Shown one piece after another: positions 27,258-38,640 of a stretch of 45,767 bases of DNA; the stretch's first letter is position 1; each line of letters opens with the position of its first letter. This stretch comes from a virus. Lineage: Duplodnaviria; Heunggongvirae; Uroviricota; Caudoviricetes. The notes beneath the pieces were generated by a model. It was not told the DNA's origin, made no database searches, and saw only the letters and a list, made by a program, of their open reading frames with translations. The position numbers and the translations under genes are program-made. The stretch is taken from IMG/VR virus record IMGVR_UViG_2519103024_000003; one strand, 5' to 3'.

Positions 27258-27566
27258 TGCTGGTTCAGAGTTAAAAAAACTATTATTTTTTTCATAATGT
27301 TACCGTAATATGTGAGTATCCATCGACTAGACACTAAGCAAAAAAGCTCCCGAAGGAGCCTTCATTTTCACTTTCTTAAATCTAACGACAGATGGCTAAC
27401 ATTTAAGTATTGTGAAATATTATCAAATGTAATCATCATTGATTTACAAAAGATACATTTTGCCCCGAAAGGATTTCTGTCAGAAACATCAAAAGATGAT
27501 GTTCTATACTGAGAACCATGGCAACACGGGCATCTAAAGTGAATATGGTTTGTAATATTTTCTACC

Positions 27567-27779
27567 TCAAAGTGCCACTACATGAACAGCTGCAGGGCCT
27601 TTAGGTCCGTTCTCAATACCAAATTCGACTTCCTGATTCTCAGTTAACGTTTTGAAATCGTTGCTCTGAATAGCTGAGAAATGCACAAACACATCTTTGC
27701 TACCATCTTTCGGCGTGATGAAACCAAAACCTTTTTCAGGGTTAAACCATTTCACTAAACCAGTCATTTTGTTAGACAT
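27567..27779 (-). CDS. cspI: Cold shock protein, CspA family (CspI-like)
   Basis: [23 protein letters not shown]... canonical cold-shock domain with RNP motifs. Confidence 0.85.
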
Positions 27780-28142
27780 CATTATTACCTTTTGAAGAAG
27801 TTAGCCCTTGGGCAGAATGGTCCGAAAAAAAATATCAGAGAGAAAAACCAACAAGGAAATCTCAAGAGGTACAAATAATAAAATTATAACAATGACTGCT
27901 TCAGATAATTTTGTAACAAACCAGAACACCATTAACGCATGATTAACCAACCATAGCAAGGATTACTTTTGTAAAGAAAAACACACGAATGAAACAATAG
28001 CTTTATTTATTAATAAAACGTGTCATTCTGTCTAATGACCTTTTATCTTACCCTTAAGATTTCAAGGATTTTGACTCATGGAAGAGTCCTTTTTATTTAA
28101 ATTTCACATTCAGCGCTAAAAATAATCCGATTTAATATTAAT

Positions 28143-29170
<1,028 letters not shown>

Positions 29171-29277
29171 GGATATTTATCAGGATTTATCGGCTTCAAA
29201 TCCCCGGATATGTTAAATCTTACCTCACCAGTGATGGGCACTGGCGGGAGGAGGATGTCAATCTGATAAACACAGAG

Positions 29278-29544
29278 GTGACTATGGATTACACAAATCT
29301 ACCAAAACAAACTTTTGCTGATTTAATCGCACTCAGGCAAGCAGTCGTAGCTCTAATCAACTTGTTGCCGGAGAAGGAAAAGGAATTAGTTAAAGCGCTT
29401 CTTAACAGAACTGCCGCCGATTTTTCATCATATCCACTGACAGATGACCTTGCGGACCTTCCTGAATTAATTGCAGCGTCCGCCATTAAGCTTACTGAAG
29501 AGATTTACCCTCCTCAAAAATCTTCACAAAATTCCTGCGAGTAA
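29278..29544 (+). CDS. Hypothetical acidic helical protein (88 aa), convergent with the YdfR-like gene
   Basis: ATG preceded by a GAGG SD; 3' end overlaps the minus-strand gene by about 50 bp. Confidence 0.4.
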   Translation: MTMDYTNLPKQTFADLIALRQAVVALINLLPEKEKELVKALLNRTAADFSSYPLTDDLADLPELIAASAIKLTEEIYPPQKSSQNSCE

Positions 29545-30043
29545 CTTCAATGCAATAATCGTAAAACGCCGCAAACTGCTCATCGCGGCGTTTTTTTTCA
29601 TCTTCAGAAGGGATCAGCACCGACAATTTTTTATTCAGATCAGCGACGCTGCCCTCCAGTTTTTCAATGGGCGATTCAATATCATCTTTTTCTGACCGCA
29701 ATGCCGTCGGTGGCGTCTTCAGAGAACCAGTAATTCTTCCCGGTAGCTTTCCTTTGTAGGTTATCCACACATTCTGCGCCTCTAAAATTATGGGGCGCTT
29801 TTCCGGCGACTGCTCATCCCCTACACATAACCCGGCAGCAACATCCAGGAATACCTGTCTGATTCTCATTCTGGCTGCTGCCTCATAAAACTCCAGCGCG
29901 GCACCTTCAACACGGTCCAGCGAGATGTCCAGGTCAAAAATTTCACCGTCAAAGCGTTTTTTGTCCCGTAAGGCTACAGTTACCGCCACTTTATTCTCAA
30001 AATTGCGGACTCCTTTCACAACCAGTTCATAGTCTTGTGTCAT
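29492..30043 (-). CDS. YdfR-like protein (about 183 aa) inserted between holin and endolysin
   Basis: ATG at 30043 lies 4 nt after the holin stop; same position as ydfR between essQ and rrrQ in Qin. No further family recalled. Confidence 0.55.
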   Translation of the reverse strand: MTQDYELVVKGVRNFENKVAVTVALRDKKRFDGEIFDLDISLDRVEGAALEFYEAAARMRIRQVFLDVAAGLCVGDEQSPEKRPIILEAQNVWITYKGKLPGRITGSLKTPPTALRSEKDDIESPIEKLEGSVADLNKKLSVLIPSEDEKKRRDEQFAAFYDYCIEVTRRNFVKIFEEGKSLQ

Positions 30044-30047
30044 TGGA

Positions 30048-30263
30048 TTACTCTCTTCTCGCAACCTTACGCCTGTCTTCTTTAATCTTGAAATAAAGGT
30101 TTGTCAGATACGTCAGCAGGCCAAAAACCAGACTACCCAGCACACCGATTGCAGCCCACTGTGACGGAGTTACTTTATCGAGTAACTGCAATGCCCAGAA
30201 ACCAGCATTACCAGCCGATGTGCCATAGGCGATACCTGTTGTTAACTTATCCATTGATTTCAT
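30048..30263 (-). CDS. Pinholin, phage 21 S-type, with dual-start motif
   Basis: 71 aa [18 protein letters not shown]...[17 protein letters not shown] closely matches the S21 pinholin; Met1/Met4 dual start. Confidence 0.85.
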
Positions 30264-30736: not shown

Positions 30737-31015
30737 TATTGTGGTACTTTTTGTGGGAGTCATCCACTTACGCACTTTGTTTTGCTATGCCAGCAGTTAG
30801 CTTCTGCTGTAAAACTATTCATGCAGCAAACCTGCACTTCACCACAATGGTTAGCATACTTTTCCTGATTAAGTTATTGCCAAATATGCTGGCCATTGTT
30901 TCATGTATTGGACCTCCTTACTATTTATTAAAGAGATCCAATATTCACCACTCTGTCTGTATCTCCACTCAGGCATCAGCCTTCTTCGTTATCGTATACA
31001 GACAAACTATGAATT

Positions 31016-31231
31016 TTAATCAGTAATTATGACATTTGCTGCTGCAGGACCTTTAGCACCACTCTCTACAGAGAAGGTAACCTTTTGACCTTCAAATAAG
31101 GTTCGAAAATTATCATTCTGAATCGCAGAAAAATGCACAAACACATCTTTACTACCATCAACAGGAGAAATAAAGCCAAAACCTTTATCAGCGTTAAACC
31201 ATTTTACTAAACCAGTCATTTTATTTGACAT
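31016..31231 (-). CDS. cspB: Cold shock protein, CspA family (CspB-like)
   Basis: [23 protein letters not shown]... cold-shock domain. Confidence 0.8.
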
Positions 31232-31531
31232 TCTACATTCCTTAACTTGAGCCTTTCGGCATAAATGGCTTGTATAACAGAAACGACTTCGTACTTAATT
31301 GGAGAGACTCAAAGAAGGAATAAGTGAATAACACCTGAAATGAGAACTGCTTTAGTAAACTACTTCGTATATCGTCTGTTCTTCAAACCGACGCAATCAT
31401 TAACGCATAGTTGAACATATGAAGCAATGTTTATTTTAGACATCCAGCCATCTTCAACCCCATCAAAAAACTATAGCTTTCTTCAGGAACGTGTGTATAG
31501 TGCGCCCAGTTATCAGTATTAAGGAATTTTT

Positions 31532-31744
31532 TTGTCCCGTAAAATGACAGGAATTGTCAAAACCTTTGACGGCAAAAGCGGCAAGGGTCTTATCACCCCA
31601 TCCGATGGTCGTATCGATGTCCAGCTTCATGTTTCAGCGCTCAATCTCCGCGATGCAGAAGAAATTACCACCGGATTACGCGTGGAATTTTGCCGGATAA
31701 ATGGTCTGCGTGGCCCTTCAGCTGCCAATGTTTACCTTTCATGA
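31532..31744 (+). CDS. cspF: Cold shock-like protein, CspF/CspH type
   Basis: [23 protein letters not shown]... resembles CspF. Confidence 0.75.
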
Positions 31745-37811: not shown

Positions 37812-38640
37812 GACGATGCCCTCCGCTGATATTCAGGAGACGGTGAATATGAAAATTAGCCTTATCCGCCAGACGAATACGTTCAGCCTGCAAGTTAAGA
37901 AGGGTTTCTACCAAAACCTGATGCGCCTGCGGATCCGAAAGAGTTACCTTGCGCAGAGCACGTAGTGCAGTTGTTACATAACTGAGTTTATGTAAGTCTT
38001 CATCATTCAGACGAGTGAGGGCTGGGACAGTAGCCATGATGGCAGCCTCCGATAACAGTGAATTACCTTCACCACCGGAAACGCCAATTTCGCTGGTGGT
38101 GAACTGAACGGGGTTGGCGTAACCGGCGTTATCGGAAACCGGCGCACCTTTCGGTGCCCCCGTCCAGCCCACCATAATTTGGGTGTGCACAGACGCAGAC
38201 GATAAAAAAGACGCTGGCGCGTCATATATCGCCGATAACATTTCCAGGACGCCAATCCCGTCACCCGCTTTATAAGGTGCCTGAACAGTGTAACGTCCCG
38301 GAATGGCAGAATCAATGTGCTGGTGGTCCTTCACACTCAACAAAATCACGCCTGAATTTCCACAAAGGACTAAAGCACTCATGCGGGTAGTCTTTGCGAA
38401 GATAGATAACGCGCTGTGTTTCTGGTTCCCAACGAATAACATGGACATAAAGCCCTCTTCCGTCACGAAACCAGCGGTTAAGTTCCCGCACAACTCGCCC
38501 CCCACAGTCAGGTAAAGTTCTCTGTGGTTACTTACAGCCAGGTAATTTGGTAATCTGCATTCATGCCGTAACAACAGGTGTTCAGCGACACTGACCACCA
38601 GCTGTTGCGACAAACGGTTATTTGCCGTTAAACTGTTCAT
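37804..38640 (-). CDS. Hypothetical early-region protein (278 aa)
   Basis: ORF in operon context; no Walker motifs or recognised domain. Confidence 0.45.
   Translation of the reverse strand: MNSLTANNRLSQQLVVSVAEHLLLRHECRLPNYLAVSNHRELYLTVGGELCGNLTAGFVTEEGFMSMLFVGNQKHSALSIFAKTTRMSALVLCGNSGVILLSVKDHQHIDSAIPGRYTVQAPYKAGDGIGVLEMLSAIYDAPASFLSSASVHTQIMVGWTGAPKGAPVSDNAGYANPVQFTTSEIGVSGGEGNSLLSEAAIMATVPALTRLNDEDLHKLSYVTTALRALRKVTLSDPQAHQVLVETLLNLQAERIRLADKANFHIHRLLNISGGHRHA

Follow-up and report, generated by a model that had tools for sequence, protein, structure and literature searches.

A candidate moron-type insert with a reverse-strand gene in the lysis cassette of a Qin-like prophage of Escherichia coli

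In the lysis cassette of phage 21, which consists of S21, R21 and Rz/Rz1, the holin gene S21 and the endolysin gene R21 are adjacent. In the Qin prophage of E. coli K-12, the slot between holin and lysozyme is occupied by ydfR, which encodes a DUF1327 protein of 103 amino acids (aa) and has a stop codon overlapping the start of rrrQ. Here, we addressed the same slot in a stretch of 45,767 nucleotides (nt) assigned to the Caudoviricetes (IMG/VR record IMGVR_UViG_2519103024_000003), referred to below, at its full length, as the window. It represents an E. coli Qin-like lambdoid prophage, with identities over the stretch in question of 100% to strain MS7163 and of 99.5% to infectious phage 2H10. 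Its ydfR gene, transcribed from the minus strand together with the other late genes, is lengthened to 183 codons, and a small acidic open reading frame (ORF) on the plus strand converges on it and overlaps its 3′ end.

The cassette resembles that of phage 21 in the “P21 holin S” match of its holin, the dual start MKSM, the endolysin similar to signal-arrest-release (SAR) enzymes and the lipoprotein ORF embedded into Rz; it differs in that ydfR and an insert part holin from endolysin by 877 nt. The likeness to Qin of K-12 comprises the DUF1327 family, the holin-lysozyme slot and residues 1-72 of YdfR, of which 60 out of 72 (83%) are identical, whereas the differences lie in the length of 183 rather than 103 aa, in the last 71 codons, which are insert-derived, and in the endolysin gene (R) located 321 nt further. 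In the K-12 protein it is these residues 1-72 that bind the N-terminal half of RNase E, and the protein co-purifies with RNA (PMC13232886); this was the sole relevant paper found in the literature on ydfR, DUF1327 and morons in lysis cassettes.

Two further kinds of described systems have to be considered. The bor gene of phage lambda is located on the strand opposite to late transcription. By analogy, the reverse-strand gene of the window, which also opposes late transcription, is probably expressed from the prophage. With morons (bor and lom of lambda, those of HK97 and the “ant moron” of P22), the insert has in common that it is a small unit, present or absent, with its own terminator and translation signals and a lower content of guanine and cytosine (GC); unlike them, it is positioned inside the lysis cassette, in the 3′ end of a gene, so placed that its terminator and 3′ end are translated antisense in a late protein, while its promoter is weakly supported and its product lacks signal peptide and lipobox. 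The definition of morons is used here as quoted in PMC2629481. Convergent units with 3′ ends overlapping by tens of nucleotides are also typical of the type I toxin/antitoxin (TA) systems txpA/RatA and bsrG/SR4, yet their toxins are short hydrophobic membrane peptides and their antitoxins non-coding RNAs, whereas two hydrophilic proteins are encoded here. As argued below, the insert has the appearance of an ordinary accessory element of phages, of the moron type, rather than of a new lysis or toxin system. The explanation favoured, to which we would give about an even chance, is that a resident ydfR gene has received a 486-bp accessory insert of this type carrying one reverse gene, the terminator of which lies antisense inside the lengthened YdfR.

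Boundaries and content of the insert

An earlier reading made from the sequence alone (below, the sequence-only reading) had described a two-gene insert splitting a holin and an endolysin that are normally adjacent. Both halves of this description have to be revised. The 183-aa protein belongs to the YdfR/DUF1327 family (PF07041, E 1.6e-41, 140.8 bits against a cut-off of 25, over aa 1-112), matches PHROG 2091 over its full length and, within a lambdoid late operon, is encoded between a class II holin and a lysozyme gene. K-12 Qin and O157 likewise have a gene of this family at that place, YdfR of O157:H7 having 114 aa and being followed by a 50-nt spacer. The DUF1327 N-domain sequence was detected in most related phages and in 3868 of 5426 complete E. 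coli genomes, so that cassettes of this kind contain such a gene as a rule. Judged by family and position, the 183-codon gene is the resident YdfR/DUF1327 late gene usual for this cassette type and not an insert, in agreement with the recognition of the slot in the sequence-only reading as that of ydfR of Qin with a longer copy (183 versus 103 aa). Its coordinates were also given correctly there: the gene starts with ATG at 30043 and ends with a stop codon at 29492-29494 on the minus strand, its distance to the holin stop is 4 nt (30044-30047), and the overlap with the convergent acidic ORF spans 53 nt (29492-29544). The start of the latter ORF is to be corrected, being likely at 29284, which gives 86 aa.

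The insert itself was delimited relative to the short-ydfR cassette of O157:H7. The features of the interval are as follows.

29222-29707, either strand: accessory insert, 486 bp; in blastn of the window against the short O157-type cassette (L111), homology stops at 29221 and resumes at 29708.
29284-29544, plus strand: reverse gene, 86 aa (88 aa from the alternative GTG at 29278); PHROG 2572, RefSeq WP_001306174.1 “hypothetical protein”.
29274-29278, plus strand: Shine-Dalgarno sequence AGAGG, 5 nt upstream of ATG 29284, as read from the sequence.
29217-29256, plus strand: GC-rich hairpin in the presumed 5′ untranslated region (5′ UTR) of the reverse gene; by RNAfold no better than shuffles.
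29186-29214, plus strand: weak promoter-like site, TTTATC, 17 nt, TATGTT, in the 50-nt ydfR-R spacer, ending 7 nt before the insert boundary.
29563-29598, plus strand: hairpin resembling an intrinsic terminator, with a 10-bp stem, a 12-nt loop and eight T (T8); RNAfold z = -2.6 against shuffles.
29492-29599, minus strand: codons 149-183 and stop of the 183-aa ORF, antisense of the terminator, spacer and last 53 nt of the reverse gene.
29600-29707, minus strand: codons 113-148 of the 183-aa ORF, a predicted linker or helix of clade-specific sequence and low confidence in AlphaFold2 (AF2).
29708-30043, minus strand: codons 1-112 of the 183-aa ORF, the resident DUF1327 domain (PF07041), where homology with the short O157 ydfR resumes.
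29171-29221: common ydfR-R spacer, serving also as endolysin leader, 91% identical to O157:H7 NE92 and present with and without the insert.

Thus delimited, the insert comprises the reverse gene with its leader and codons 113-183 of the late-strand ORF, and it is present neither in K-12 Qin nor in the O157 short-ydfR cassette. Its far strand is open in frame with ydfR and provides the last 71 codons. The tail of YdfR is thus translated from the strand opposite to the terminator and final 53 nt of the reverse gene, which makes the convergent overlap an inherent property of the insert. Instead of two inserted genes, only codons 113-183 and the plus-strand ORF appear to have been inserted next to codons 1-112 of the resident YdfR, and the greater length of this YdfR is explained by the insert. 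Presence and absence between syntenic relatives, expected for a moron, are evident from the counts: the plus-strand ORF and the convergent overlap were found in 311 of the 5426 complete genomes (about 6%) and ydfR in 3868, the spacer 29171-29221 being the sole part of the query matched in many E. coli genomes. The composition deviates in the expected direction, though modestly, with a GC content of 42.7% for the insert, 47.7% for ydfR and 51.5% for the endolysin gene.

The family as a whole is mosaic beyond residue 112 or, in K-12-type members such as those of clade B described below, beyond approximately residues 73-98; proteins of 103, 114-116, 169, 176, 183, 211, 268, 296 and 329 aa were found. 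The long forms of Shiga toxin (Stx) phages (296-329 aa, PHROG 1085) have aa 1-164 in common with the window, including the stretch KKRRDEQFAAFY, encoded by the hairpin and retained at 98% nucleotide identity, but diverge at window position 29552, 7 nt past the stop of the reverse gene, into an unrelated C-terminal domain of 125 aa, and have no reverse gene. In the Stx2a phage Stx2_95 (L006 1501-2490, 329 aa) and in P0068 (296 aa), this extra domain fills the whole gap between holin and endolysin; the 296-aa form is devoid of one hairpin arm. The possibility that the plus-strand ORF is an antisense shadow of the long-YdfR C-terminal domain was rejected, tblastn of the 329-aa protein against 29171-29491 giving nothing in any frame.

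Annotation of the interval is conflicting. In MS7163 and two other genomes, RefSeq/PGAP treats the DUF1327 gene as a pseudogene, “incomplete, missing C-terminus” (L001 4538-4873, equal to window 29708-30043; likewise L007 and L008), and calls the reverse ORF instead; the records of 2H10 and PhiR63_1 call only the 183-aa ORF, and those of PhiR5 and PhiR12 call both. Since the 183-aa ORF is intact and of constant length in 62 of the 93 surveyed loci and occurs in 2H10 and PhiR63_1, both of them infectious phages, we read the pseudogene label as an annotation artefact. The arrangement of these two phages is identical to that of the window, and its presence in infectious phages indicates that it is compatible with lysis.

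The reverse-strand gene and its signals

The ATG at 29284 is likely to be the true start of the plus-strand ORF, being also the choice of RefSeq, and the GTG at 29278 overlaps the Shine-Dalgarno site. The predicted product is acidic (isoelectric point 4.6), has no transmembrane segment and is modelled with three helices at moderate confidence (predicted local distance difference test, pLDDT, 72). Its close homologs are confined to E. coli and are at least 85% identical. An HMMER scan of 1.8 billion representative proteins retrieved the diverged relatives P0140 (93 aa, 57% identity) and P0141 (89 aa, 41%), and homologs from Salmonella enterica were added by profile search. Three clades, A to C, are compared in what follows. 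From the same search, P0139 (975 aa, eight matched stretches) was dismissed as a TPR/CHAT-like repeat protein matched through repeats and composition noise, and P0142, which looks like a frameshifted translation, was ignored. The label “DUF1823” found in PhiR phage records was rejected as well, PF08853 scoring 13.2 bits against a cut-off of 25 (E 0.11), which is below threshold.

Conservation of the ORF, proposed as a check in the sequence-only reading, is borne out by these diverged homologs. At nucleotide divergence of approximately 40% between the three clades, the plus frame contains no stops and has a ratio of nonsynonymous to synonymous substitution rates (dN/dS, Jukes-Cantor, JC) of 0.20-0.29, the lowest of the six frames, while the antisense shadow frame accumulates one or two stops, has higher ratios and lacks a conserved start. 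Alleles of the ORF differ by in-frame indels. In all clades a Shine-Dalgarno sequence is positioned 5-7 nt before the aligned start codon, being TAAGGA at the equivalent distance in clades B and C. Given the homologs, low dN/dS, conserved Shine-Dalgarno sequence and start, in-frame indels and the calls by RefSeq and PHROG, we conclude that the plus-strand ORF is in all likelihood a real, conserved gene under purifying selection.

The terminator-like hairpin begins 19 nt past the stop of this gene, inside the YdfR coding sequence (codons for KKRRDEQFAAFY), and is kept in all three clades at constant distance from the stop. In the alignment of seven distinct sequences, 90% of cells pair, versus 34-67% with the partner column slid. 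Clade B contributes one compensatory exchange of G-C for A-U, for which the partner protein pays with R-to-H and A-to-V substitutions, and one allele (29589 C>T) has a G-U pair valid only in RNA of the plus strand. The shuffle control was not significant (97/500), and support from covariation is therefore modest. The hairpin escaped the consensus scan because the latter permits loops only up to 8 nt. We read it as the intrinsic terminator of the reverse gene, embedded into the YdfR coding sequence; in silico, the unit would thus have its own factor-independent terminator, as morons do. Slippage on T8 as a frameshift switch was rejected, the run being T8 in 86 of 89 copies.

At the other end of the gene, the hairpin of the presumed 5′ UTR has a counterpart at equal position in clades A2, B and C, and clades A, A2 and B agree in the hexamers and 17-nt spacing of the promoter-like site (C has TATTGT), with a variable sequence between the hexamers. 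One more terminator-like hairpin with a T-run occupies 29136-29151 of the plus strand, within the 5′-terminal part of the endolysin gene and just upstream of the leader of the reverse gene; it would block transcripts coming from upstream, which fits a start of the plus-strand transcript between 29160 and 29283.

Recurrence, mobility and decay of the unit

Clade B includes six E. coli genomes, in which the plus-strand gene is found again between a ydfR gene and the endolysin gene, this ydfR being of K-12 type and extended to 174 or 243 codons. Clade C is represented by Salmonella Fels-1-like prophages (terminase 96.8% identical to Fels-1). There, the gene is located after Rz and before the DUF1441/terminase genes, next to a different lysis cassette (holin_8/holin_3_7 and a GH19 endolysin) with no DUF1327, and it converges on a free-standing gene for a 73-aa protein (p73). 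The overlap spans 53-59 nt throughout, and the frame in which the partner is read is identical in every clade. The p73 gene (L011 1558-1779, minus strand; L108-L110) is omitted by NCBI annotation and included by other gene callers.

Similarity between the partners is limited to their last 35 residues (window aa 149-183 versus p73 aa 37-71, BLASTP E 3e-5, with hhalign in agreement); over the 36-38 partner codons preceding this stretch, cross-clade similarity is no better than for shuffles (p about 0.5). At the nucleotide level, the window and clade C are homologous over 29166-29201, 29300-29445 and 29459-29599, the last of these positions, 29599, opening codon 149 and directly following the T-run of the hairpin. 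According to this alignment, conservation of the partner coincides exactly with the stretch antisense to the terminator of the plus-strand gene, its 3′ end and the spacer between them. The pairing exceeds chance, since the ORF and the overlap recur in the 311 E. coli genomes and in two diverged clades. The distribution, as far as genome comparison can tell, shows the unit to be mobile between the S-R slot in E. coli, where it is fused to two ydfR types, and the Rz-terminase slot in Salmonella.

The suggestion of an accessory module in the sequence-only reading is therewith upheld for the plus-strand ORF: in three clades, two slots and two species it is conserved, subject to purifying selection and inherited together with the 3′ end that it overlaps. 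Comparison of the locus between prophages, advised there as a probe of co-inheritance, gave the answer that the pair is kept in all three clades and that the partner is conserved over the last 35 codons only.

Decay of both ORFs was encountered in the survey. A premature stop interrupts the plus-strand ORF at one locus, the DUF1327 N-domain is broken at two, and loss of the start codon is described below; neither ORF can thus be indispensable to the prophage. As separate observations, in one genome, where the 3′ end of the reverse gene is interrupted, an element of the insertion sequence family IS3 (L009 1847-3060) lies approximately 45 nt past the end of the homology to the plus-strand ORF, and the IMG/VR contigs L020, L026, L031 and L042 diverge exactly at the stop of the reverse gene (position equivalent to window 29542), which may be a recurrent site of insertion or recombination.

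Alternative explanations, context and meaning

In the favoured explanation, the insert would have entered directly behind ydfR codon 112, adjoining the 50-nt ydfR-R spacer, and its far strand would continue the reading frame of the preceding late gene either by chance or because this frame has been kept open. Transcription of the reverse gene in the lysogen would begin at the weak promoter-like site of the spacer and halt at the hairpin. After induction, Q-modified late transcription, opposite in sense and insensitive to this hairpin, would make S, YdfR183, R and Rz and would suppress the reverse gene by collision. The product of the latter may be a prophage-state accessory protein of conversion or exclusion type that acts by protein binding and is not a lysis protein, which is a guess from size, charge and placement. 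By homology with K-12 YdfR, the N-domain of the window protein may bind the catalytic half of RNase E, and possibly RNA, late in infection. Expression of the plus-strand ORF at lysis, as a part of the late operon, had been supposed in the sequence-only reading and has to be abandoned because this ORF is antisense to the operon.

The toxin/antitoxin-like function considered there fares no better. For type I TA, the most hydrophobic 19-residue segment has a Kyte-Doolittle mean of 1.62 and belongs to an amphipathic helix containing Asp and Arg (0.35 for the partner tail), so that neither protein offers a hydrophobic peptide; the 53-nt 3′ overlap and the hairpin do provide an antisense aspect, yet both strands are protein-coding under selection. 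For type II TA, the genes are convergent rather than co-directional, and no toxin, antitoxin or defence domain was detected by Pfam, NCBIfam or PADLOC in either protein, nor a toxin or antitoxin domain in the clade B and C homologs. The role of a lysis regulator, also proposed, is unlikely: neither ORF has a transmembrane segment, as would be anticipated of antiholins and SAR-endolysin release factors, or a PHROG of “lysis” category, and linkage to holin and endolysin is not constant, the Salmonella unit following Rz in a cassette with different holins, a GH19 endolysin and no DUF1327.

Several observations weigh against the favoured explanation, and part of them bears on its rival, a true two-gene convergent cassette composed of an ancestral late gene of about 73 codons and a reverse gene of about 90, whose products or transcripts act mutually. 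The late-strand segment supplied by the insert is nearly equal in the three clades (71, 76 and 73 codons). In Salmonella, p73 has its own Shine-Dalgarno sequence GGGGG and TAATG coupling to the Rz stop, and over its non-conserved N-terminal 36 codons the ratio of nonsynonymous to synonymous differences (pN/pS) is 0.32-0.42 (p 0.009-0.04), versus about 1 in control frames. The equal size of the segment, the free-standing p73 and its pN/pS fit a true cassette rather than passive read-in. Other points concern the reverse gene and its partner directly. In seven loci (L055, L056, L066, L068, L075, L077 and L080) the start ATG is changed to ACG (29285 T>C); these are 7 of approximately 8 surveyed loci with the 176-aa partner variant (P0022 type, 463 contigs from E. 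coli and Shigella), and such copies keep only the poorly placed GTG 29278, so that the gene may be inactive there. Inside clade A, dN/dS relies on 12-15 substitutions, too few to be informative. The promoter-like site agrees with the consensus in 7 of 12 positions and is located outside the insert; it occurs also in O157 cassettes without the reverse gene, and the consensus promoter scan found no plus-strand promoter between endolysin and the ORF. The AF2 model of the window YdfR is of low confidence (pLDDT 55). Finally, the 86-aa protein has no match in Pfam, NCBIfam, PADLOC, PDB sequences (where the 183-aa protein has none either), PDB folds or BFVD (Foldseek with its model gave zero hits in PDB and none below E 2.9 in BFVD); lacking a fold or family match, its biochemical role is a matter of guesswork.

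In variants of the two-gene explanation, a prophage-state protein would neutralise a late effector, or a defence protein would be accompanied by a partner conferring self-immunity; through the 3′ overlap, the two genes would be forced to be inherited together and to exclude each other's expression, and the 73-codon gene would have been fused to ydfR in E. coli. Besides the properties of p73, retention of the pair in three clades with overlaps of 53-59 nt and an unchanged partner frame speaks for it. The partner similarity, however, is confined to the 35 codons overlying the terminator and 3′ end of the reverse gene, so that co-inheritance can be explained without a functional link; expression of the two genes would fall into separate phases of the phage life cycle, both proteins are hydrophilic and acidic or neutral, without TA, defence or known interaction domains, and the evidence on p73 does not demonstrate a functional link between the products. 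On balance we regard this explanation as unlikely, though deserving of attention. Its narrower form, in which the obligate convergent pair is a lysogeny/lysis toggle and the 86-aa protein, confined to the prophage state, acts on the helical tail of YdfR, confined to late transcription, or is counteracted by it, is rather improbable.

The remaining alternatives attribute no protein partnership to the pair. An antisense or transcriptional-interference regulator of lysis, in which the plus-strand transcript would tune the ydfR-R junction (endolysin dose, lysis timing) with the hairpin as bidirectional attenuator, draws on complementarity of this transcript to the late mRNA between ydfR and R, on A8 and T8 flanking the hairpin on either side and on the proximity of the unit to the endolysin leader in E. 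coli. It is opposed by the conserved Shine-Dalgarno sequence and start, by the predicted transcript start, which is downstream of the R ribosome-binding site and hence precludes pairing, and by the insert-free cassettes of K-12 Qin and O157, which have the same S, R and Rz genes. Moreover, RNA polymerase modified by Q ignores terminator hairpins, as established for lambda, and should ignore this one. The absence of a lysis gene downstream of the Salmonella unit, located after Rz, and the constraint on the ORF at protein level make such a regulator highly improbable. Hardly credible at all is the suggestion that there is no gene, the plus-strand ORF having arisen by chance or as a shadow frame in the decayed remains of a longer ydfR, with the 183-aa ORF as a pseudogene. 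The PGAP label, the long YdfR forms filling the whole gap in Stx phages, the nearly open antisense shadow frame and the restriction of close homologs to E. coli could be quoted in its favour; the 125 C-terminal residues of the long form have no counterpart in any window frame, though, the diverged homologs retain length, start and Shine-Dalgarno sequence, the 183-aa ORF is intact in most surveyed loci and in infectious phages, and the signal of selection between clades makes an artefact unlikely.

The neighboring genes of the cassette, given as context, are the following.

30048-30263, minus strand: class II holin (pinholin) of S21 type, 71 aa; PF04971 Phage_holin_2_1 (P21 holin S), E 7e-34; PHROG “holin”; N-terminus MKSM with dual start; RefSeq name essQ, class II holin.
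28637-29170, minus strand: SAR-type endolysin, rrrQ-like, 177 aa; PF00959 Phage_lysozyme, E 3e-24; PHROG “endolysin”; RefSeq “lysozyme”; Ala-rich SAR-like segment at the N-terminus.
28143-28640, minus strand: Rz-like spanin (DUF2514); PF10721, E 4e-38; PHROG “Rz-like spanin”.
28193-28489: Rz1-like lipoprotein ORF, embedded in Rz.

The cassette is flanked by the cold-shock genes cspB and cspI with 5′ UTRs of the cspA thermoregulator type (Rfam RF01766, 156 and 110 bits; 30953-31392 and 27521-27937, both on the minus strand), and a third cold-shock paralog, cspF, is located at 31532-31744 on the plus strand. At a distance, a C4 antisense RNA (RF01695, 83 bits; 38092-38179, minus strand) adjoins isrK (RF01394, 55 bits; 38204-38280, minus strand), these being small RNAs of P1/P7-type immunity or anti-Q type.

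Both ORFs of the interval are already catalogued as hypothetical proteins; new here are the boundaries of the insert, the embedded terminator, the mobility of the unit and the explanation of the longer YdfR. The understanding of pinholin/SAR-endolysin lysis is left unchanged. The conflicting annotation is corrected in the sense that an intact 183-aa late gene and the reverse ORF are both probably real, and the 86-aa protein is flagged as a candidate prophage-state accessory factor. If the toggle were true after all, the shared 3′ end and the embedded terminator would enforce co-inheritance and mutually exclusive expression, and prophage defence or exclusion with built-in self-immunity, as well as a link to RNase E via the YdfR domain, would become possible. 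For prophages of E. coli and Salmonella, the comparisons point to a small mobile unit common to both, whose terminator lies inside the coding sequence of another gene and imposes overlapping constraints on the two.

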